Below, piece by piece: positions 4,401 to 48,321 of a stretch of 64,000 nucleotides of DNA. Under the pieces are notes generated by a model. The model saw nothing but the letters and a program-made list of their open reading frames with translations. It searched no databases and was not told where the DNA came from. Origin of the DNA: Chloroflexota bacterium. GTDB taxonomy: Bacteria; Chloroflexota; Limnocylindria; Limnocylindrales; CSP1-4. The stretch spans positions 1,859-65,858 of the forward strand of contig VBGT01000051.1 in assembly GCA_005889475.1 (NCBI GenBank). Reading direction: 5' to 3'. Made by a program: the position numbers and the translations under genes. How positions within the stretch are numbered: the first letter of the stretch is position 1; each line of letters opens with the position of its first letter.

Positions 4401-6133
4401 CCCGCGATCCCCACGCCAACGCCCTCGACGACGCGACGATCGAGCAGCTCGTCCGCGACGTGGCCGGCTCGTGGACGATGCCGCCGGTCCGGCTCGACGC
4501 GCCCAGCTGGCGCGACCGGGTACGGAGGCCCGGTGCCCGCCGGCTCGCCGTCGCGGGTGGCTGGCTGGGCCGCTTCGGCCAGGCCGCGACAGCGGCGGCC
4601 GCGCTGACCGTCGTCGGCGCCCTGATCGCCGTCGTCCTGACGCACCCCCCGACGGAGCCGGGCAAGAGCCCGCAGCCCTCGACCGGCACGACGCCGGGCC
4701 CGACCAGGGGCGCACAGGCCACGCCGCTGCCGAAGATCCTGCTCGCGGGCGACGAGCCGAACCCCGCCGTGGTCGTCGTTCGCACCGAGCGTGGTGACTA
4801 CGCCCGCGTCGACCTGGCGACGGGCTCGATCGACGGGCCGCTGACCAGCAAGAGCTCGTCCAGCGAGCTGCGGCTCCAGGGCGGCGGGACCATGGTCTGC
4901 CTGTGCGTCTCGGAGTCGGGGAGCATCGGTGGGATGCCCACGGATAACTCCGTGAGCCTCGACCGCTACGACTCCCGGGGCAAGTTGACCTCCAGCTCGC
5001 CGATCCAGTCCTTCTCGGGCGAGCCCGACCCGCGCGACGTGGGCGAGCTGATCCCCGACAAGCCGGCCCACGTCCTGACCAACATCGGCTACAGCCCCGA
5101 CGGGCGCTATGGCTTCGTCGGCTGGAGCGTGCGCGCCCATCCGGTCTGGCAGAGCGGCATCGTCGTGGTCGACATGCGCGACGGGTCGGTCGTCAGCCGC
5201 CTGGCGCTGCCCGACGCGAGCGACGGCGAGGGAGATGCGCGCCGGGTGGTCACGGCGCCCGGCGTCGTCGGCTCGATCGGCTCGAGCAGCGTGGCGGTCG
5301 CGCGGAGCTGGTACGAGTGGACACCTGCGGCGTCGCTGGAGCCCAGTTATACGTTCGAGAACGACGTCTTCACCGCGAAGCTCGGCGACGGCACCTTCTC
5401 GGATCTCGCGCCGGTGCGGCTCGCCAGCGATTGCGGTGCGACGGTCAACCGCGCCGGCGCGCTGCCCGAAGGAGGCTTCTGGCTCGCCTGCACGCAGGGT
5501 GGCGCGGAGCTCACGATCGTGCGCCGGCTCGCGGCCGACGGCTCGCTGCTCGGCGACGTCCGGGTCAACGGTGGTGTCGGCATCGATGCCGATCCGACCG
5601 CACTGAGCGACAACGGCGCCACCCTGTACGTCTGGGATCCCTCCGGCGCCACGCTGACCGGGGTCGATCTCGCAAAAGGGACCAAGACCTCGGGCAAGGG
5701 CATCGCGGCGGCCGGGGACGGCCCGCTGTCGGCGCTCGGGCATTGGCTCGCTCCCACCGCAGCTGCGAAGTCGTTCCTGCGCGGTGCGCTCGCGATCTCA
5801 CCTGATGGGTCGCGGATCTACGCCATCGGCGTCAAGGGCGGGGGCAGCTCGCACGAGATGGCGGGCTCGACGGGCGTGTTCGTGTTCGACGCCGCGTCGC
5901 TCGAACCCGCGGGGGTCTGGCAGCCGACCGCCGACTACGTCTCGCTCGCGGTCAGCGCCGACGGCCGCTTCGTCTACGCCGCGGGCCTGCCCGGGATCGA
6001 CGCGGCCGGCGAGCGGCAGCTGGACCAGCAGGCCTCGATCACGGTCTACGACACGACCGACGGCTCGGTCCGGCTCATCGCCGGCCGTCTCGGCGGCGAC
6101 ATGCTGTCGTTCATCTCGAGCGCCCTGAACTGA
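4397..6133 (+). CDS. Putative membrane-anchored anti-sigma factor with a large extracytoplasmic beta-propeller-like domain
   Basis: Translationally coupled to the ECF sigma gene. Cytoplasmic N-terminus, a single TM (AAAALTVVGALIAVVL), then ~480 aa with repeated DG..YA.G / LYVWD beta-propeller-like motifs. No zinc-binding HxxxCxxC motif. Confidence 0.6.
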   Translation: MTRDPHANALDDATIEQLVRDVAGSWTMPPVRLDAPSWRDRVRRPGARRLAVAGGWLGRFGQAATAAAALTVVGALIAVVLTHPPTEPGKSPQPSTGTTPGPTRGAQATPLPKILLAGDEPNPAVVVVRTERGDYARVDLATGSIDGPLTSKSSSSELRLQGGGTMVCLCVSESGSIGGMPTDNSVSLDRYDSRGKLTSSSPIQSFSGEPDPRDVGELIPDKPAHVLTNIGYSPDGRYGFVGWSVRAHPVWQSGIVVVDMRDGSVVSRLALPDASDGEGDARRVVTAPGVVGSIGSSSVAVARSWYEWTPAASLEPSYTFENDVFTAKLGDGTFSDLAPVRLASDCGATVNRAGALPEGGFWLACTQGGAELTIVRRLAADGSLLGDVRVNGGVGIDADPTALSDNGATLYVWDPSGATLTGVDLAKGTKTSGKGIAAAGDGPLSALGHWLAPTAAAKSFLRGALAISPDGSRIYAIGVKGGGSSHEMAGSTGVFVFDAASLEPAGVWQPTADYVSLAVSADGRFVYAAGLPGIDAAGERQLDQQASITVYDTTDGSVRLIAGRLGGDMLSFISSALN

Positions 6134-8467: not shown

Positions 8468-8522
8468 TGCCCGGAGCGTACCCGCGGTGCCGCGTCCAGG
8501 TCTCGATCCGCGATGAGGTCGG

Positions 8523-8612
8523 CCTAGTCGACGTACTGGAGCGGCGTGACCGCGAAGCCCTCCGGGAGCGTGATGCCGGTCGCGTGGTTCGGGCAGTAGC
8601 CGTTCGGGACCT
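8523..8612 (-). pseudogene. Orphan fragment of the msrA 3' end (last ~29 codons: [29 protein letters not shown]), same orientation as intact msrA
   Basis: Reverse-complement translation matches the msrA C-terminus [29 protein letters not shown]. About 78% nt identity to 10354..10443, including an identical 28-mer tggttcgggcagtagccgttcgggacct. Homology stops abruptly upstream (in-frame stop 5 codons before). Confidence 0.8.
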
Positions 8613-8830: not shown

Positions 8831-8868
8831 TGTCGATGTGTCTCCTTACGTCTGCCGGAGGGTGCCCG

Positions 8869-8952
8869 CTATTCCAGGTACCGCATCGGTGTGACGACGA
8901 AGTCGTCCGGCAGCCTCACGCTAGTTCGGTGATCCGGGCAATACGCTCCCGG
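8869..8952 (-). pseudogene. Second, more diverged orphan fragment of the msrA 3' end (GAYCPDHRTSVRLPDDFVVTPMRYLE*)
   Basis: Reverse-complement translation aligns with the msrA C-terminus ([24 protein letters not shown]). Same orientation as msrA and fragment 1. Confidence 0.6.
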
Positions 8953-9075
8953 GCCTCGGTTCTGGAGGAGTCAGCCTATTGCCGGCTGTCGCTTCGTACT
9001 GGAATCGCGATACAGTGGATCTAAGTGCATCCGCCCGTCACGTCGTATGCCGCGCGGAACCTCGGTGATGGGATC

Positions 9076-10326: not shown

Positions 10327-10353
10327 ATCATGTTCAGCGCTGCTCTGGCCAGG

Positions 10354-11025
10354 CTAGTCGACGTATTGCAGCGGAGTGACCCCGAACTCAGCCGGCAGCT
10401 TCACGCCGGTCCGATGGTTCGGGCAGTAGCCGTTCGGGACCTTCTGGAGGTACTGCTGGTGGTAGTCCTCGGCGAAGTAGAAGTCCGGCGCCGGCGGTCC
10501 GACGATCTCGGTCGTGATGGCGCCGTACCCGGCGGCCGCCAGGCGCTCCTGGTACATCGCCTTCGACGCCTCGGCCGCGGCCCGCTGCGCCTCGTCGCGG
10601 ACGAAGATCGCGGAACGGTACTGGGTCCCGGCGTCGTTGCCCTGGCGCATGCCCTGGGTCGGGTCGTGGTTCTCCCAGAACACCTTCAAGAGCTGCTCGT
10701 AGCTCGTCTTTGACGGATCAAACACGACACGCACCGCCTCGGCATGGCCGGTCTGACCGGTGCACGCCTCCTGGTAGGTCGGGTTCGGGGTGTAGCCACC
10801 CTGATAGCCGACCGCTGTCGTCCAGACCCCGGGCTGCTGCCAGAACGTCTTTTCCTCACCCCAGAAGCAGCCAAGCGCGAACTCGGCGATCTGGAAGCCG
10901 TCGGGGTACGGGCCGGCGATCGGCGTGCCGAGGACCGTGTGGGCCTTCGGGCTCAGGATGGGCTGGCTGCGGCCCGGCAGGGCCTCGGTGGGTGCCGGCA
11001 TCTTGGGCTTCGAGAACAGGAACAT
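10354..11025 (-). CDS. msrA: Peptide-methionine (S)-S-oxide reductase MsrA
   Basis: 223 aa. Active-site GCFWG motif ([16 protein letters not shown]) and typical MsrA core. Confidence 0.92.
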
Positions 11026-29717: not shown

Positions 29718-30554
29718 GTGACCGTCCAGGGCGCCGTCCTCCGGGCGCTGCGCAAGCCGCGCGGCAGCGCACGGCAGGGCTTCGGGACGACGAGCCGCCG
29801 CGACAACTGGGTCGTCTTCCCGGTGGTTCAGGCGCTCGTCTTCACCCTGTGCGCGGGCTACCTGACGTTCAGCGGCATCTTCTGGGAGCCGATCCTCCCG
29901 ACGGGCTATCGCTGGGACGGCTACCTCTCGCCGCTGTTCTCGCCGCTCATCGTCTGGAAGGACATGCCGACCTGGCTGAGCCCGGGCCTGCTGATCCTGT
30001 GGATCCCGATCGGCTTCCGGGCCACCTGCTACTACTACCGGAAGGCGTATTACCGCTTCTACTTCGCCGACCCGCCGGGCTGCGCCGTCGGCGAACCGAC
30101 GATGCACCGCCGCTTCGCCCTCGAGAACGCCCTCCCGTTCGTCCTCCAGAACCTGCACCGGTACCTGCTGTACCTGGCGTTCATCCCGCTGACGTTCCTG
30201 TGGCTGGACATCATCCCGGCGTTCATCGCGCCCGCAGGCGAGGCCGGGGTCACCGATCCCGGGCTCCGCATCGGGATCGGCGGCCTCCTGTTCCTGGTCA
30301 ACGTGACCCTGCTGACCGGCTACTCGCTGTCGTGCCACTCGCTGCGTCACCTCGTCGGCGGGCGGATCGACTGCTTCTCGTGCACCCGAGCACGGCGGGT
30401 CAGGTACACGCTCTGGCAGCGCCTGACCGACCTCAACCGGAGCCACATGTGGTGGGCGTGGGCGAGTCTGATCACCGTCACGCTGGCCGACATCTACGTC
30501 CGGCTGCTCGTGCTGGGGGTGATCACCGACCAAGCCATCCACTTCAACCTCTAG
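29718..30554 (+). CDS. sdhC: Succinate dehydrogenase/fumarate reductase cytochrome b subunit (membrane anchor)
   Basis: 278 aa, 5 or 6 TM, conserved His residues. Immediately upstream of the sdhA and sdhB genes. Confidence 0.6.
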   Translation: MTVQGAVLRALRKPRGSARQGFGTTSRRDNWVVFPVVQALVFTLCAGYLTFSGIFWEPILPTGYRWDGYLSPLFSPLIVWKDMPTWLSPGLLILWIPIGFRATCYYYRKAYYRFYFADPPGCAVGEPTMHRRFALENALPFVLQNLHRYLLYLAFIPLTFLWLDIIPAFIAPAGEAGVTDPGLRIGIGGLLFLVNVTLLTGYSLSCHSLRHLVGGRIDCFSCTRARRVRYTLWQRLTDLNRSHMWWAWASLITVTLADIYVRLLVLGVITDQAIHFNL

Positions 30555-30610
30555 GCGCCGGCGGTCGATGGTCCTGGCTTCGGAGGTGCTCGACCAGATC
30601 GAGACGCATC

Positions 30611-30771
30611 CTGTCGACGTCGGCCAGCTCCTTGAACTGGTCGTACATCGATGGCAGCTTGCGTCGGACGTGCTCCGGGGGCAGGTAGCTGATGTCGAGG
30701 AAGACGCCGCCATGGGGCGAGCCCCGACCCTCGCGGACCTCGGTGTAGATCGCGCGTGAGACGTTGTCGCA
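30611..30771. repeat. Perfect 161-bp inverted duplicate of an internal sdhA segment (partner at 31507..31667)
   Basis: The reverse complement of 30611..30771 is identical base-for-base to 31507..31667, which encodes SRAIYTEVREGRGSPHGGVFLDISYLPPEHVRRKLPSMYDQFKELADVD. Track ORFs 30568..30759(+) and 31518..32810(-) share the identical peptide as a consequence. Confidence 0.9.
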
Positions 30772-32390
30772 CCCACTTCCGGGACACGATGGTCGGCGGC
30801 AAGCTGCTCAACAACGCGCGCATGGCCGAGCTGCACGCCAGGGAGGCGCCGGACCGGGTTCGCGAGCTGGAGGCGTGGGGCGCCGTCTTCGACCGGACGC
30901 GCGACGGGCGGATCCTGCAGCGGCCGTTCGGCGGCCATTCGCACCCGCGCCTCGCCCACGTCGGCGACCGCACCGGGCTGGAGATGATCCGAACCCTCCA
31001 GGATCGCGCCGTCGCGGCCGGCGTCGACGTGTTCATGGAGTGCACGATCACGCGCCTGATCACCGGCGCCGACGGCGTCGTCGGAGCGTTCGGCTACTGG
31101 CGCACGACCGGCGGGCCCGTCGTGTTTCCCGCGAAGACGGTCGTCCTCGCCACCGGCGGCATCGGCAAGGCGTACACCGTCACCTCGAACTCGTGGGAAT
31201 ACAGCGGCGACGGCCACGCACTGGCGTACTCGGTCGGCGCCGACCTCATCGACATGGAGTTCGTCCAGTTCCACCCGACAGGCATGGTCTGGCCGCCCGG
31301 GGTCCGCGGCCTGCTCGTCACCGAGGCGGTCCGTGGCGAGGGCGGGATCCTGCGCAACAAGGACGGCGAGCGGTTCATGTCGAGGTACCTGCCCGAGGAT
31401 CGGCGCGGCGAGTACGCCTCGACGGATGAGGAGGCTGCGCGGTGGGTCACCGCCCAGTCCGAGGGCCGGGTGACCGACGCGCGCCGGCCGCCGGAGCTGT
31501 CGACCCGCGACAACGTCTCACGCGCGATCTACACCGAGGTCCGCGAGGGTCGGGGCTCGCCCCATGGCGGCGTCTTCCTCGACATCAGCTACCTGCCCCC
31601 GGAGCACGTCCGACGCAAGCTGCCATCGATGTACGACCAGTTCAAGGAGCTGGCCGACGTCGACATCACCACGGGCCCGATGGAGGTCGGGCCGACGACG
31701 CACTACGTCATGGGTGGGGTGCGCGTCGACGCCGAGACGGGGGCGAGCACCGTCCCGGGCCTGTACGCCGCGGGCGAGGTCGCCGGCGGGATGCACGGCG
31801 CGAACCGGCTCGGCGGCAACTCGCTGTCCGACCTGCTCGTGTTCGGCCAGCGTACCGGTGCCGCAGCCGCGGCCGCGGCGACCTCCGTGGCAGGCTGGAA
31901 GAAGGCGCCGTACCTCGATCCGGTCCAGGTGCGCGACGCCGGACGCGAGCTCTCCGCGCCGCTCGAGCAGGGCAGTGGAGAGGACCCCTACGCCCTCCAG
32001 CGCGACCTCCAGGATGTCATGCAGCGCCTGGTCGGCATCTTCCGGGTCGAGGCCGACCTGCAGGAGGCCACGTCCGAGCTGTCGAGGCTCAAGGCGCGCT
32101 GGCCTGCCGTCGGCGTCCGCGGCGGGCGGACATTCAACCCGGGCTGGAATCTCGTCTTCGAGCTGCGCAACCTGCTCGTCGTCTCCGAGGCGATCACGCG
32201 CAGCGCCCTGCAGCGCACCGAGAGCCGCGGCGCCCACAGCCGCATCGACCACCCGGAGACCGACCAGGCAGGCTGGGGCGGGCGCAACAGCGTCGTCCGG
32301 CGCCGACCCGACGGCTCGATGGAGGTGACCACGACCGCGCTGCCCGAGATGTCCGACGAGCTGCGGCTCCTGCTCGGCGGTGCCCATTGA
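30756..32390 (+). CDS. sdhA: Succinate dehydrogenase flavoprotein subunit, lacking the N-terminal ~70 aa FAD-binding region. Possibly a pseudogene or an assembly artefact.
   Basis: Homology to SdhA starts at about 30774 (THFRDTMVGGKLL aligns with E. coli WHMYDTVKGSDY). This is exactly where the inverted duplicate ends. The rest of SdhA is intact through to the C-terminus. Confidence 0.6.
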   Translation: MRRCRTHFRDTMVGGKLLNNARMAELHAREAPDRVRELEAWGAVFDRTRDGRILQRPFGGHSHPRLAHVGDRTGLEMIRTLQDRAVAAGVDVFMECTITRLITGADGVVGAFGYWRTTGGPVVFPAKTVVLATGGIGKAYTVTSNSWEYSGDGHALAYSVGADLIDMEFVQFHPTGMVWPPGVRGLLVTEAVRGEGGILRNKDGERFMSRYLPEDRRGEYASTDEEAARWVTAQSEGRVTDARRPPELSTRDNVSRAIYTEVREGRGSPHGGVFLDISYLPPEHVRRKLPSMYDQFKELADVDITTGPMEVGPTTHYVMGGVRVDAETGASTVPGLYAAGEVAGGMHGANRLGGNSLSDLLVFGQRTGAAAAAAATSVAGWKKAPYLDPVQVRDAGRELSAPLEQGSGEDPYALQRDLQDVMQRLVGIFRVEADLQEATSELSRLKARWPAVGVRGGRTFNPGWNLVFELRNLLVVSEAITRSALQRTESRGAHSRIDHPETDQAGWGGRNSVVRRRPDGSMEVTTTALPEMSDELRLLLGGAH

Positions 32391-32424: not shown

Positions 32425-33546
32425 ATGATCGAGACCAGGCCGCCCGCCGAGGTCCCGGCACGAGCCGAGGCTCTGCCCGGCGCAGCGATTGACGAGGCCA
32501 GAGCGTCGAGCGTGGCGAAGCTACGCGTGTTCCGCGGCGAGCCCGGAACGCCGTCCCGGTACGACGAGTTCGACGTGCCGGTGGAGGAGGGGATGGTCGT
32601 CCTCGATGCCCTCCACTGGATCCAGGGCAACGGCGCGCCCGATCTGGCCGTGCGCTGGAACTGCAAGGCCGCGAAGTGCGGCTCCTGCGGCGCCGAGGTC
32701 AACGGCCGGCCGAGCCTCACGTGCAAGACCCGGCTGTCCGACTTCGACCTCGACGAGCCCATCACGGTCGAGCCGATGCGGACGTTCCCGCTGGTGCGTG
32801 ACCTCGTCACCGACGTGTCCTGGAACTACGAGGTGAACCGCTCGATCGAGCCGTTCTCGCCCCCGGCCGACGTTCCCCAGTCGGACTGGCGCTGGCAGCA
32901 GGAGGACATCGAGCGGGTCCAGGAGTTCCGCAAGTGCATCGAGTGCTTCCTGTGCCAGGACGTCTGCCACGTGCTGCGCAACCACGAAACCGAGCGGCCA
33001 TTCATGGGCCCGCGCTTCCTCGTTCGGGCGGCCGGGCTCGAGATGCACCCGATCGACCAGGCGGACCGGCGCCCGTACCTGAAGGACGTCGGCGGCGTCG
33101 GCTACTGCAACATCACCAAGTGCTGCACCGAGGTCTGCCCGGAGCACATCAAGATCACCGACAACGCGATCATCCCGCTCAAGGAGCGCGTCGCCGACGA
33201 GTTCTACGACCCGATCCAGTGGGCCTGGCGCAAGCTCCGGGGCCGGTCCGATTCGGCACCGGATCGGAGGAGCTTGCCGGTTCTGCAGGCCGGCCGGCAG
33301 GCCGAGCCATCGATCGAGCCCACCCCGGAACGATTGGCGCGAGCCGTCGGTGAGGATTCGCCCGTCGCCGAACCGATGCACGCCGCGGCACCGACGACTT
33401 CGACTCCCGCCGCCGAGCCGACTCCGGCCGCTGAGCGGACCGACGCGGGCAAGGTGGCGAAGGCCGCCCGTGCGACGGCGGGCCCCCGCGCCAAGCGCGC
33501 CCGGCGCCGCCCGGACACGGGCGACGAGACGCCGTCCGAGGGCTAG
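32425..33546 (+). CDS. sdhB: Succinate dehydrogenase iron-sulfur subunit with a ~110-aa low-complexity C-terminal extension
   Basis: 2Fe-2S (CKAAKCGSCGAEVNG), 4Fe-4S and 3Fe-4S cysteine clusters (CIECFLCQDVC, CTEVCP). Pro/Ala/Glu-rich tail. Confidence 0.85.
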   Translation: MIETRPPAEVPARAEALPGAAIDEARASSVAKLRVFRGEPGTPSRYDEFDVPVEEGMVVLDALHWIQGNGAPDLAVRWNCKAAKCGSCGAEVNGRPSLTCKTRLSDFDLDEPITVEPMRTFPLVRDLVTDVSWNYEVNRSIEPFSPPADVPQSDWRWQQEDIERVQEFRKCIECFLCQDVCHVLRNHETERPFMGPRFLVRAAGLEMHPIDQADRRPYLKDVGGVGYCNITKCCTEVCPEHIKITDNAIIPLKERVADEFYDPIQWAWRKLRGRSDSAPDRRSLPVLQAGRQAEPSIEPTPERLARAVGEDSPVAEPMHAAAPTTSTPAAEPTPAAERTDAGKVAKAARATAGPRAKRARRRPDTGDETPSEG

Positions 33547-33554
33547 GCCGGACC

Positions 33555-34139
33555 TTGCGGGAGCCGCCGCTGACGCTCGGCCTCGACGAGCCTGCCGACG
33601 ACGCGAGCACGTTCGAAGACGCCGCCTCCGCGCGTGCGTCCGCGGGCCGGGTGGCGGCCGGAAAGCAACCGGTCGGCTTCGTCGTCCGCACGGACGGTGC
33701 GGCCCGAGGCAATCCCGGGCCGGCATCGGCCGGGGCCGTGCTCATCTCGCTCGCGCGAGGGGACGCCCGGAGCCCGCTTGCTCCGCCGGATGCCTCGATC
33801 TCGGACTACCTCGGGGTGCAGACGAACAACGTCGCCGAGTACACCGCGGTCGTTCGCGCGATCGAGCTGGCGCTGGAGCTGGGCGCCCGCCGCCTGGAGC
33901 TGTTGCTCGACTCGAAGCTGATCGTGGAACAGCTGTCGGGCCGCTGGCGCGTCAAGGACGCGAAGCTGCGGCCACTGTGGGCGGAGGCGCTGCGCGGTCT
34001 CCGAGCGCTGCCCGACGGCTGGGTCGCGGCGCACGTGCCCCGCGCCCAGAACTCCTCAGCGGATGCCCTGTGCAACGCGGCGATCGATCGGGTGATGGCC
34101 GGCGGCCCCGAGTCGGTCGTCGTGCGGCCTCGGTCGTGA
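33555..34139 (+). CDS. rnhA: Ribonuclease HI (RNase H type 1)
   Basis: 194 aa. Catalytic DEDD-containing motifs (NNVAEYTAVVRAIELALE, LLDSKLIVEQLSG). Confidence 0.7.
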   Translation: MREPPLTLGLDEPADDASTFEDAASARASAGRVAAGKQPVGFVVRTDGAARGNPGPASAGAVLISLARGDARSPLAPPDASISDYLGVQTNNVAEYTAVVRAIELALELGARRLELLLDSKLIVEQLSGRWRVKDAKLRPLWAEALRGLRALPDGWVAAHVPRAQNSSADALCNAAIDRVMAGGPESVVVRPRS

Positions 34140-34282: not shown

Positions 34283-37200
34283 CTACAGCTCCGCCATCTG
34301 TGCCCGGGTTTCGTCCGCTTCGACGGGCATGCCGAGGCGTTCATACCCCTCGAGCGCCAGGCGCAGCAGACGCCGTGCGTCGTCGTCGTGCCCCTTGGCT
34401 GCCTGGTGGGTTGCCTCTGCGCGATCGATTGCCGGCCCGAGCCAGGCGAGGCGCGTCGACCGGCGCCGCAGCTTTGGGAGAACGGTTGCGAGCGAATCCC
34501 AGTCCCCGAGGCGTGCCAGCGCTTCGACGAGGACCGGCTGCTCGTATGGCCCCTCGTCGAACGATGGTGGGCGGTCTGCTCCGCCCATTCGGATGACGAT
34601 GTCCCGTGCTTCCGCGGCATCGCCCCGGCGCATCGCCCGCTCCGCCAGCCACGCTTCGACGAGCCCGGGCCGCGCGTCGTTCGGCGCGATCCGTCGTTCG
34701 GCTTCGGCCATCTCCTCGAGGCGCCCGAGACGCTCGAACACGATGGCCGCCACCACGGGTCCGCTGCGCGTGTACGGGCAGCTCATGTCGACCGTCTCGC
34801 GGTCGTAGGTGTCGAGATGCTCGTGCGCCAGCGGCACGATCTCGTCCCAGCGGGCCAGGCGGTACAGGGCGGCCATCGAGAAGTAGGTCTGATGCATCTG
34901 TTCGTGGACGCTGAGCTGGCTTGCGAGCGGTCCGATTCCCCGATAGATGTCCAGCGCGACATCGAACTCGCCTGCGATGTCCATGACGAGCGCGGCGGCC
35001 TGCTGGCCCGTGATCAGCCGGTCGCGGATCGCGACGACCTGGTCAAGCGACGCCACCAGCCGGCGGGCGATGTCCAAGGCACGCGCGTCGTCACCCTCGA
35101 GGACCCGGAGGCCGTCGAGCATCCGTAAGGCCACGACGCGGAGGTCGCCGTCGCCGGACGCCTCGGCGATGGCGACGGCTTCCTCGACGGCCGCAACACG
35201 GGCCTTCGCATTCAGGGGATCAGGCCGACCCTCGGCAGCCCATGTCTCCGCCGCACGACCCCGAAGCGCGAGCAGCCAGGCGCGAGTCACGGGATCCCGG
35301 GCGTGCGCGAGGCCTTCGTCGACATAGCCATCGACCACCTGGGCCGAAGGTCGGCTCGTAAATCCGCCGTAGAAAATCCCCGCGAGGCGCCCTGCCTTCA
35401 GGGAGATGCGGGCGATCGCATCGTCGTCACCCGCCGCCCGAAAGAGCTCGAGCGCGTGGCCCCACGCCTCCGTGCTCGGATCACCGTGCATGCCCCAACC
35501 ATGGTCATCGCCCAGCTCCTCGAAGACGGGCGCTCGCTCGTCGTCCGAGGCGGCGATCGCGAGTGCCGCCTCATGGAGCTCGACAGCCCGGTCGATCGCG
35601 TTGCGACGACGTGCGACGGCGCCGGCAGCCACGATGGTTTCGAATGCCCGCGCACGCATTGCCGCACGAGCCTCGGGCTCGTCTGCCCAGGCGAGGTCGG
35701 CCCCGTCGGCCAACAACGCCCGCCGATAGTGATGCGCCACGAGCTCGACGAGTGCCTCATCGTCAGGACCGGCCAGGTCCTGGAGCCAGGCCGCGGCGCG
35801 CGCATGGGAGCGAGCCCGCCGCGCGAGTGGGACGCCCTGGTACGCGACATCGAGGATGAGTGCGTGCTTGAACGCGAACTCGACCTGACCGCTGACGCTG
35901 GACGTCGGCCGCGCCACCACGAACCCCTTCGATTCGAGACTGATCAGGGAGTCGTCGACGGTCGGCCGATCGATCGACAGGGCGACGGCTGAAGGCCAGA
36001 AAGCGCGGCCCACGACCGCGGCTTCCTGCAGGACCAGCTTGTGGTCCGGGGACAGGCGATCGAGCCGAGCGGCAAGCACCGCCTGAACCGTATCCGGCAG
36101 TCCCTCCGGGGCGACGCCGCCCGCGAAACTCCAGCCGTCTCCGGCAGGCGCGAGTGCTCCCGCATCCACGAGCCCGCCAATCAGCTGCTCGAGGAAGAAG
36201 GGGTTGCCGTCGGCGCGGTCAAGGACCTCCGCACGCATGGATTCCGGAAGCGCCCCGGCGCCGACGAGGTTCCGGAGCACGCCGGCCGCCTCGCCAGCGA
36301 GCAAGGGACGCAGGGTCAGGGACATTGCGCCGTCTCGCGCGACACTGAACTCGGGGTGGTCGTCGGCGAACTCGGGCCGCGCGGTGGCGAGCACCAGGAC
36401 CGGGCCCGCCGTGCGGGTTCGGATGCTGTCGAGGATCGCCAGGAGCTGGCTGTCGGCCCAATGGAGGTCCTCGATGAGGATCACGAGTGGAACCTTGGCG
36501 AGCGCCGACACGAAGCGTGGCCAGGCGACGGACAGCGCGATGGCGACGGCGGTCGGGCGTACCCCGACGAGCGGATTGCCCGGAAGGCGGATACCAGCCG
36601 AGATGCCGAGCGCGTGGATCGTGTCGACGATGTCGGTTTCGGGGACCCCTGCCGTCGTGAAGATGTCGCGGACGCCGCGTTCCAGACGCTCCCCGGCGAG
36701 CTCGATCGGATCGTCGAGGGCGATGCCGAACTCGCGGCGGACGATCTCGCCGAGCGCCCAGTACGTGATCCCGTCCCCGGCCGAGAGGCACCGTCCACGG
36801 ACGACGCGAAGGTCGGCCCGCGCCTCCATGGCGGATGCCCGCCGGGCCGAACACCACGACGAGTCGAAGCGACCCGGTTTCGACAGCGTCGTCGAGCGCC
36901 TCGGCCAGGCTCCGTCGCTCGCGCTCCCGACCGACGATCGGCGACTGCAGGCGTCCCGTCGCGGCTTCGGGCTCGAGGCGCGGCCCGAGGACGGGCCACG
37001 CCTTGACCGGCTGGGACTTGCCTCGAAGCTCGAGATCCCGCGAGTCGCCGAAGCCATACAAATCCGACACGGCCGCGTGGGTTCGATCACCCACGAGGAT
37101 GGTCGCCGGCTCGGCAGCTTGTTCGAGCCTCGCCGCGACGTTCACGGCATCGCCGACGACGATCATCTCGCCTTCGGGACCGCCAACCGGAGCCATGACG

Positions 37201-46743: not shown

Positions 46744-48321
46744 GTGATGACCGCCGATCGTCCCGACATCGTGGCCAGCACATCGGGAGGTCAGGCCACC
46801 CTCGACCCCGCGAATCTCGTGCCCGGGGCCCTCACGACCGGCGTCTTCCGCGGCCGGCCGGTGAGCGTGCTCGGGTTCGCCCGATCCGGGATCGCCCTGG
46901 CGCGCTTCCTCGCCGACGCCGGCGCCATCGTGTCGGTCTACGACGCGCGGCCCGCCGGCGACCTGGCGCGCGCCGTCGCGGCGCTGGAGGGCCGGCCGGT
47001 CCGACAGCTCTTCGGCCCTGACGTCAACCCGGGCGAGGCGCTCGCCGGGGCGAGCCTCGTCGCGACCTCGCCGTCGATCAACGCCGACTACCCGACCACG
47101 GAGCCGCGACTGCGCGGGGCGCTGGCCGAGCTGGTCGCACGCCGTGCCGCGGGCGACACGGCGGCGCCGGCCGTGATCTCCGAGGTCGACCTGTTCCTGC
47201 GACTGTGTCCGTCGCCGACGATCGGGATCACCGGCACGAAGGGCAAGACGACGACGTCGGCGCTGACCCACGCCCTTCTCGCCACCGACCCGGACCATGC
47301 CGCGGTCCTCGGCGGGAACATCGGCGCGCCGCTGGTCGAGCGGCTGCCGGAGCTGACCCCTCGCCATCGGGTCGTGCTCGAGCTGTCCGAGCTCCAGCTC
47401 CCGACGCTGTCCCGGGGCACGACCGTGGCCGTGTACACCAACGTGACCGCGGACCACCTGGACCGGCACGGCAGCCTCGAGGCGTACCGAGCCGTGAAGC
47501 GGAGGCTGGCTGAGCTCGTCGATCCCGCCGGAGCGCTGGTGCTGAACGCCGACGACCCCGTCGTCGCCGGCTACGACGCGGCGACGAGTGCTCGGGTCGT
47601 GCGCTACCGCCGGGGCGAGGTGCCGCCCGATGGGCTGGGCGTCGCGCACGGCTGGATCGTGGCCGACGCCATCGCACCGCTCGACGAAACCGGCGCGAAC
47701 GCCGGTCCGGCGGGATCGGCGGGCGGCCGGATCATGCCAATCAGCGAGCTGGGCGTGCCCGGCGCCCACAACGTGTCCAACGCCCTCGCGGCGACCGCCG
47801 TTGCGCTGGTCTTTGGGATCCCACCCGAGTCGATCCGGCGCGCGGCGCGCGAGTTCAGCGGCGTCGAGCACCGCCTCGAGCGGGTGGCCGAGGTCGATGG
47901 GGTGCGCTTCGTCAACGACTCCCAGGGCACGCAGCCCGACGCCGTCATCGCGGCGCTGCGCGCCTTCGAGCCGCCGATCGTGCTCATCGCCGGCGGCCGG
48001 GACAAGGGCGTCGACCTGGCCGAGCTCGGGCAGGTGGTCGGCGAGCGCGTCGCCGCCGCGGTGCTCATCGGCGAGAGCGGGCCGGCGCTGGAGCGACTGT
48101 TCCGGGCCGCCGGCCTCGCGACGACGGAGCGCGCAGCCACGCTCGAGGATGCCGTCGAGGCGGCCGATGCCCTCGCCCGCGATGCCCGTCGGGCGACCGG
48201 CGCCACGGCCACCGTGCTGCTCAGCCCGGCCGCGGCCAGCTTCGATATGTTCGCGGACTACGAGGCCCGCGGCCGGGCGTTCAAGGCCGCCGTCGCTCGC
48301 CTGGCAGGGGAGCAGGGCTGA
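46744..48321 (+). CDS. murD: UDP-N-acetylmuramoylalanine--D-glutamate ligase MurD
   Basis: 525 aa. P-loop GITGTKGKTTTSAL. Mur ligase domains. Confidence 0.9.
   Translation: MMTADRPDIVASTSGGQATLDPANLVPGALTTGVFRGRPVSVLGFARSGIALARFLADAGAIVSVYDARPAGDLARAVAALEGRPVRQLFGPDVNPGEALAGASLVATSPSINADYPTTEPRLRGALAELVARRAAGDTAAPAVISEVDLFLRLCPSPTIGITGTKGKTTTSALTHALLATDPDHAAVLGGNIGAPLVERLPELTPRHRVVLELSELQLPTLSRGTTVAVYTNVTADHLDRHGSLEAYRAVKRRLAELVDPAGALVLNADDPVVAGYDAATSARVVRYRRGEVPPDGLGVAHGWIVADAIAPLDETGANAGPAGSAGGRIMPISELGVPGAHNVSNALAATAVALVFGIPPESIRRAAREFSGVEHRLERVAEVDGVRFVNDSQGTQPDAVIAALRAFEPPIVLIAGGRDKGVDLAELGQVVGERVAAAVLIGESGPALERLFRAAGLATTERAATLEDAVEAADALARDARRATGATATVLLSPAAASFDMFADYEARGRAFKAAVARLAGEQG

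Follow-up and report, generated by a model that had tools for sequence, protein, structure and literature searches.

An inverted-copy replacement in sdhA of a soil Chloroflexota metagenome-assembled genome, probably a local assembly or gap-repair error

The sdhA gene of a soil Chloroflexota metagenome-assembled genome (MAG) was found, in the 64-kb stretch of DNA analysed here (the window), to have lost native codons 19-75 (171 nt) and to carry in their place 149 nt of inverted sdhA sequence, with a net change of -22 nt and a frameshift. The event is a deletion combined with an inverted insertion, that is, a replacement. Judged from the sequences of other assemblies of the same population, the inverted duplicate is probably a local assembly or gap-repair error of a short-read scaffold, and the true sdhA would be an intact gene of 614 aa.

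The two arms, at 30612-30770 and 31507-31665, form a 159-nt inverted repeat that is 100% complementary, with a spacing of 736 nt and an outer span of 1,054 nt. A first-pass annotation had described a perfect inverted duplicate of internal sdhA sequence at this site, which was correct except for its length of 161 nt, as the two bases outside each arm are unpaired. The pair is the sole long perfect repeat within the 64-kb window, and a perfect 159-nt match cannot be due to chance. The right arm (31507-31665, plus strand) is the donor, with the 159 nt in their native place within sdhA, and is collinear with all population contigs. The left arm (30612-30770, minus strand) is the inverted copy, 100% reverse-complementary to 31507-31665. 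Only part of it is foreign to its position, namely 149 of the 159 nt (30622-30770), which correspond to sdhA codons 321-374 in reverse complement; in a tblastn comparison native residues 322-373 mapped to 30768-30613 on the minus strand of this arm.

The remaining ten nucleotides constitute the left junction (30612-30621), where comparing the window with both the native allele and the reverse-complemented donor disclosed a 10-nt microhomology, TGTCGACGTC, common to the native 5'-end of sdhA and the reverse complement of 31656-31665. This microhomology had not figured in the earlier account of the region. The right junction (30770/30771), assessed by the same kind of comparison, is blunt, with 0 nt of microhomology: native codon 76 (ACC) begins at 30771, and the BLAST alignments of all population contigs pick up again at this base. 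The stretch between the arms (30771-31506) keeps its native orientation and aligns collinearly with all relatives, and a simple inversion between the arms was therefore rejected. Of the two origins proposed at first pass, a recent inversion was thus wrong and a chimeric assembly join is the one that the evidence favours. An equal-length swap of 159 nt for exactly 159 nt was likewise rejected, given that 171 nt gave way to 149 nt.

On gene order and profile matches, the operon is an ordinary sdhCAB of the mycobacterial Sdh1 type. The membrane anchor gene sdhC (29718-30554, plus strand) is intact; its 278-aa open reading frame (ORF) is identical in nine population contigs and the product is homologous to PDB 7D6V chain C, 'Succinate dehydrogenase (Membrane anchor subunit)' (E 1.2e-35), with no match to Pfam and NCBIfam profiles. 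The iron-sulfur subunit gene sdhB (32425-33546, plus strand) is also intact, with a 373-aa product identical in seven contigs and a score of 402.8 bits against NCBIfam NF009052 (cut-off 256). The flavoprotein is of type PRK07803 (population allele only), the Fe-S subunit of type PRK12386 and the anchor 7D6V_C-like. With the mycobacterial Sdh1-type operon (PDB 7D6V/7D6X) it shares the order sdhC-sdhA-sdhB, an anchor homologous to 7D6V chain C, and flavoprotein and Fe-S subunits that match NF005866 and NF009052, respectively; it differs in its host, a soil Chloroflexota MAG, and in that the flavoprotein of the window is without residues 19-75. No decay was seen in sdhB, sdhC or the rest of sdhA.

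The sdhA start codon (ATG, 30568) is 14 nt past the sdhC stop, a spacing equal to that in the population contigs. The distance from the sdhC stop to the left arm is 57 nt (30555-30611), not 56 nt as first noted, nor is it just spacer: it comprises 13 nt of intergenic sequence and 44 nt of the native sdhA 5'-end, which runs a further 10 nt into the left arm, to 30621. The kept 5'-end (30568-30621, plus strand, MVLASEVLDQIETHPVDV) thus includes the start and codons 1-18, equal to the first 54 nt of intact sdhA, and is identical to the 5'-end of the intact 614/620-aa sdhA in nine population contigs (L001-L009). From the native start, a chimeric ORF of 63 aa (30568-30759, plus strand) passes into the inverted copy and ends at a TGA stop (30757-30759). 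The rest of sdhA (30771-32390, plus strand), native codons 76-614 and the stop, is otherwise undamaged as deduced from its similarity to population SdhA (99.1% amino acid identity over residues 73-614) and to Pfam, where the remaining ORF matched FAD_binding_2 positions 62-414 and Succ_DH_flav_C. In the ORF at 30756-32390, the FAD_binding_2 match begins at profile position 62 of 414, corresponding to ORF residue 6 and base 30771. This is the first base past the left arm, in agreement with the earlier observation that SdhA homology begins at the edge of the duplicate. NCBI annotates 30789-32390 as TME11137.1, 'FAD-binding protein'.

The lost 171 nt encode LVIGAGGAGLRAAIEAKAAGASVGLVCKSLLGKAHTVMAEGGVAAALGHVDPEDKWQ. 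The missing segment holds the GxGxxG dinucleotide-binding motif and a GKAHTVMAEGG segment (LVIGAGGAG...GKAHTVMAEGG...DKWQ), the latter being, in SdhA/FrdA proteins generally, the site of the FAD-linked histidine. Across the 20 related genomes checked it is near-invariant, and few parts of the protein are as conserved. Against NCBIfam NF005866 (cut-off 819 bits) the truncated ORF of the window scored 788.7 bits and covered profile positions 75-608 only; the intact population allele scored 923.9 bits, above the cut-off. With both motifs gone, the TGA at 30757-30759 and a score under the cut-off, sdhA as written cannot yield a working flavoprotein, as had been concluded at first pass. The loss had been put at about 70 aa (210 nt) and in fact amounts to 57 codons (171 nt, native residues 19-75); what was described as a lacking N-terminus is the loss of the FAD-binding and histidine segment, with the start and codons 1-18 still in place. 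The second sdhA/frdA copy, or the missing 171 nt themselves, that had been envisaged elsewhere was not found by tblastn and blastn within the 64-kb window. A weak inverted match at 46924-46991 was rejected as a flavoprotein gene, since it is inside a Mur-ligase-type ORF of a division/cell-wall cluster, and the gene there is called Mur_ligase_M/Mur_ligase_C in the population loci.

A search for exact matches to the proteins SdhC, SdhB and isocitrate dehydrogenase (the last encoded upstream) yielded about twenty contigs from other metagenome assemblies; these were ENA 'CRIT18-1_SAMN089028xx' scaffolds, MEGAHIT k141 contigs and JGI contigs. A look-up with a gene at 12.7 kb, intended to extend the comparison leftward, returned no record. 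Among GTDB representative genomes the best match, in a Chloroflexia MAG, reached only 81% amino acid identity. Both junctions were spanned by 12 contigs from 12 assemblies (L001, L002, L003, L005-L009, L091, L097, L099 and L105), some of which may be re-assemblies of the same samples. None of the 12 carries the inverted copy; at that position there are 171 different nucleotides, and with these native 171 nt restored every one of the 12 aligns to the window as a single collinear block at 96.7-99.8% identity. Their sdhA is an intact gene of 614 aa, or 620 aa in one scaffold. The raw scaffold L001 has a singleton discrepancy of its own in sdhA, 35 nt standing for 17 nt at codons ~478-489; it was compared as another possible inverted local copy and rejected as such, with no identifiable source.

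The k-mers defined for the site were GAGACGCATCCTGTCGACGTCGGCCAGCTCCTT for the chimeric left junction, GAGACGTTGTCGCACCCACTTCCGGGAC for the chimeric right junction and the native 33-mer GAGACGCATCCTGTCGACGTCCTGGTGATCGGG. The chimeric left-junction 33-mer had 0 matches among JGI metagenome contigs, and the native 33-mer, as a positive control, matched two of them. In a collection of 15 billion proteins, the truncated 533-aa product (30789-32390) formed a one-member cluster containing only TME11137.1, and the chimeric 63-aa ORF had no record. Neither product is present in the contig index, where the adjacent icd and sdhB occur on no contig above 50 kb. TME11137.1 is 'MAG: FAD-binding protein [Chloroflexi bacterium]' on a 77,585-nt contig, where its neighbours are TME11096 (icd), TME11136 (sdhC) and TME11097 (sdhB). 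As the truncated product occurs only in TME11137.1 and the junction was absent from other public contigs, a single deposited MAG scaffold is the only one with this arrangement.

The site of the replacement is one at which other assemblies also fail. The missing 171-nt segment has 74.9% GC and 44% G, and 10 nt beyond the left breakpoint there is a run, GGGGCGGGCGGTGCGGGGCTCCGGG, with the form of a G-quadruplex-type motif; the 64 kb contain five such motifs in total, one of them being this one near the left breakpoint. Two contigs, L004 and L107, terminate at ...GGGGCGGGCGGTGCGGG, 26 nt beyond the left junction, and L098/L103 terminates within the missing 171-nt segment. The breaks of L004 and L107 at the G-run lend support but do not amount to statistical proof, as the two may share one sample.

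A second local lesion was found at 36833/36834, about 6 kb from that in sdhA and on the same contig, where 35 nt present in L090 and L110 are missing. The deletion frameshifts a minus-strand AAA_16 ATPase gene and takes out its Walker A GKS codons; on the minus strand the missing 35 nt encode GPAGI[GKSRLVREFTGD]AMEAR, including the Walker A lysine. In the raw scaffold L093/L109 a string of 10 Ns begins at exactly the same base, and the MEGAHIT contig L112 begins inside the missing 35 nt. The L109 scaffold has 99.965% identity to the window over 19.9 kb, which places the window in the same population and very probably in the same data set. There are, then, two frameshifting lesions in the about 30 kb of the contig open to comparison, and in both a G-rich stretch coding for a nucleotide-binding loop was lost and sibling assemblies break at the site. 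Most likely, both arose from local assembly or repair errors at such G-rich stretches.

We infer that the window derives from the Angelo Coast Range Reserve grassland data set and its pipeline of IDBA-UD assembly and Velvet repair, the link being drawn from near-identity to the per-sample scaffolds of that study, the sample names and the NCBI MAG label, and not from a record accession. For the Angelo grassland, Diamond et al. 2019 used 250-bp read pairs with 500-bp inter-read spacing, trimmed to ≤200 nt, and assembled each sample with IDBA-UD (k 30-200) with scaffolding; in the bins 'scaffolding errors [were] corrected as previously described' (PMC6784897). In the repair procedure of Anantharaman et al. 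2016, zero-coverage regions are found, reads within a 1-kb flank are collected and reassembled with Velvet, and the region is replaced; on failure, Ns are inserted (PMC5079060). A pipeline of this likely source type is documented as leaving local errors, and Chen et al. 2020 counted 13 local assembly errors in one 1.13-Mb genome (PMC7111523), so that finding one or two in 64-78 kb is not surprising. The donor, 736-895 nt downstream, is inside the 1-kb repair flank and the 149-nt foreign insert fits within a trimmed read. The inverted copy also lies where a reverse mate would be expected, and in the orientation of one, and the 1,054-nt span is close to the implied fragment length, which we regard as a suggestive coincidence.

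From what was observed directly, namely the anatomy of the replacement, its unique junction, the intact population allele, the breaks at the same spot and the second, gap-associated lesion, the following course may be proposed. The G-rich 171-nt stretch with GGGGCGGGCGGTGCGGGGCTCCGGG would have been poorly covered or poorly read, leaving an assembly break or a gap. The left contig end would then have been extended, or the gap patched, with about 150 nt of reverse-strand sequence from 0.74-0.9 kb downstream, joined through the 10-nt inverted match TGTCGACGTC. The patch itself may have been a mate read in the wrong orientation, a chimeric molecule from the library or a mini-contig produced by local reassembly, and would have been abutted onto the next contig, beginning at native codon 76. 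A blunt right junction is what two abutted contigs would give. The software step behind the join is inferred, and read support is presumably missing at the junctions. Against an assembly error it can be argued that no k-mer overlap used by a de Bruijn assembler is as short as a 10-nt microhomology (k at least 30 in this pipeline), that a genuine template switch would leave the same microhomology at the left junction, and that a real double template switch classically takes the form of two junctions lying as close together as these, within 159 nt. Since de Bruijn joining needs more than 10 nt of overlap, the origin of the left junction was probably a chimeric library molecule that arose at the natural 10-nt inverted match, or an overlap-merging or patching step.

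Local and gap-repair errors described for short-read MAGs (PMC7111523, PMC5079060) resemble the present case in that a consensus of about 150-170 nt matches no other assembly of the population, the site is one of breaks or Ns elsewhere, a protein-coding gene is cut in the public record and a second lesion is nearby; they differ from it in that the published descriptions are without an inverted copy from about 0.9 kb away joined via a 10-nt microhomology. Three hallmarks of a local assembly error were found here: the arrangement was not reproduced, the site is one of breaks and gaps, and another lesion is present in the same scaffold. Inverted-repeat chimeric molecules are formed in sonicated, end-repaired libraries, as described by the PDSM model (PMC10908179), and chimeras formed through microhomology have also been described (PMC8674242). 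Such molecules likewise join forward sequence to nearby reverse-complement sequence via a short natural inverted repeat, with a foreign part within read length. They are, however, low-frequency reads that are normally outvoted, whereas here one would need to have entered the consensus, an outcome plausible only where there was a hole in coverage.

A rival account is a very recent fold-back template switch, mediated by microhomology, which would have knocked out sdhA in the sequenced strain; we consider this unlikely. The nascent plus-sense strand, ending in ...TGTCGACGTC (30621), would have paired with GACGTCGACA on the opposite template (31656-31665), and 149 nt would have been copied backwards before a jump back to native codon 76, with deletion of 171 nt. 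The donor is indeed near and inverted (159 nt at 100%, 736 nt downstream), the 10-nt microhomology at the junction is far beyond chance, and the G-quadruplex-type motif adjoining the breakpoint could stall a polymerase; the perfect identity of the arms and the otherwise intact operon would fit a very recent event. Classical quasi-palindrome events are tens of bases long and their arms are separated by a few to tens of bases; the present case differs in having 149 nt from 0.9 kb, a return junction without homology and an allele unseen in the population. With bacterial quasi-palindrome and template-switch mutations (PMC7202029, PMC3411829) it shares nearby sequence copied in inverted form, microhomology at the switch point and a structure-forming motif close by. 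Template switching at inverted repeats is moreover an established mutational route (PMC7202029), and low-frequency microhomology-mediated rearrangements, inversions included, are real in bacterial cultures (PMC3411829). Set against this, the junction occurs in none of the 12 contigs of the population that span the site, and no public contig with it was found. Microhomology is confined to one of the two ends, with 10 nt at the left and 0 nt at the return junction. A further frameshifting lesion lies on the same contig where a scaffold gap is documented, and the breakpoint coincides with the spot where other assemblies fail. To become the consensus, the allele would also need to have dominated one soil sample while destroying the only sdhA seen in the window. 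The full scenario, in which the strain lost its Sdh1-type sdhA by a double template switch adjacent to a G-quadruplex and then dominated one sample, is held to be slightly more doubtful still.

That the 159-nt repeats flank a 736-nt segment which flips to switch sdhA on and off has a negligible probability. Formally, this is a DNA segment bounded by a perfect inverted repeat, but flipping 30771-31506 cannot bring back the 171 missing nucleotides, and neither orientation would give a functional enzyme. One of the arms is plain native coding sequence, and the repeat and the flipped orientation are absent from all population contigs. The genes called in this neighbourhood in the population loci are sucCD, a luciferase-like oxidoreductase gene, icd, sdhCAB, an RNase H-like gene and the AAA_16 ATPase gene, with no recombinase or invertase family among those called in the loci that cover it. 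A programmed invertible switch was thus excluded by the anatomy, the called genes and the lack of any flipped form.

A real junction would make this a modestly interesting natural case of a long-range template-switch knockout: a fold-back replacement of 149 nt from 0.9 kb downstream, freshly caught in nature, together with the in situ loss of a TCA-cycle gene. For the assembly or gap-repair error preferred here, the implications are for data quality, as the public MAG record TME11137.1 carries a truncated SdhA and a second gene 6 kb away is frameshifted. In short-read MAGs, perfect inverted duplicates that abut a gene truncation need to be checked against sibling assemblies before any biological reading. 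Metabolic reconstructions and pseudogene counts made from such records would wrongly score the organism as being without a functional succinate dehydrogenase.

The minus-strand ORF for an AAA_16-type ATPase (34283-37090) is interrupted in the window at 36833-36834. Comparison of contigs from the same soil population disclosed 35 nt at this point that are present in L090 and L110 and absent from the window, and with their loss the Walker A GKS codons of the ATPase are gone and the frame is shifted. The sister raw scaffold L093/L109 displays 10 Ns, the first of them at the same base as the deletion, and the start of contig L112 falls within the missing 35 nt. The deletion is probably a second assembly lesion, in addition to the likely one in sdhA. 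Another stretch of the same ORF, window 35053-35090, corresponds to a 30-N gap in raw scaffold L090 (8629-8658); here the window is complete and identical to the MEGAHIT contig L091, and thus gaps in these scaffolds were sometimes correctly closed. Across assemblies the called length of this gene, the next on the minus strand after the RNase H / RVT_3-domain gene, ranges from 247 to 1104 aa, a spread due in part to gaps.

A discrepancy was also found in sdhA of L001 (CRIT18-1_SAMN08902851 scaffold_3602), at about 6020-6055, equivalent to window ~31975-31992. In this raw scaffold alone 17 nt are replaced by 35 nt, such that SdhA reads EQGSVAVLVEQVGRQRLQRDL where the others have EQGSGEDPYALQRDL and is 620 rather than 614 aa long. 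The extra sequence had no match within the locus or the window, and the discrepancy reflects either one more local misassembly or variation between strains. When the 171 nt of native sdhA sequence are put back into the window, a canonical G-quadruplex-type motif, GGGGCGGGCGGTGCGGGGCTCCGGG, lies just after base 30621 (e.g. L002:4630-4654), where it codes for the GxGxxG loop of SdhA. Only 5 motifs of this type occur in the 64 kb, and the ends of two contigs fall within this one.

The SdhC-like membrane anchor (29718-30554), annotated by NCBI in a shorter version of 268 aa, is clearly homologous to the anchor of Mycobacterium smegmatis Sdh1 (PDB 7D6V chain C, E 1.2e-35). It matched no model in Pfam or NCBIfam, and neither of these profile libraries seems to cover its family. 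SdhB (32425-33546, 373 aa) is identical in seven contigs; its match to NF009052, the profile for the Fe-S subunit (length 255), stops at residue 276, and the C-terminus is a Pro/Ala/Glu/Arg-rich tail of ~97 residues. Directly downstream is the RNase H / RVT_3-domain gene (33555-34139, 194 aa), whose position after sdhB is conserved in all population contigs.

Elsewhere in the window, a 96-nt stretch occurs in three diverged direct copies (8517-8612, 8862-8957 and 10347-10442) sharing 63-81% identity, which may be the ends of paralogous minus-strand genes.
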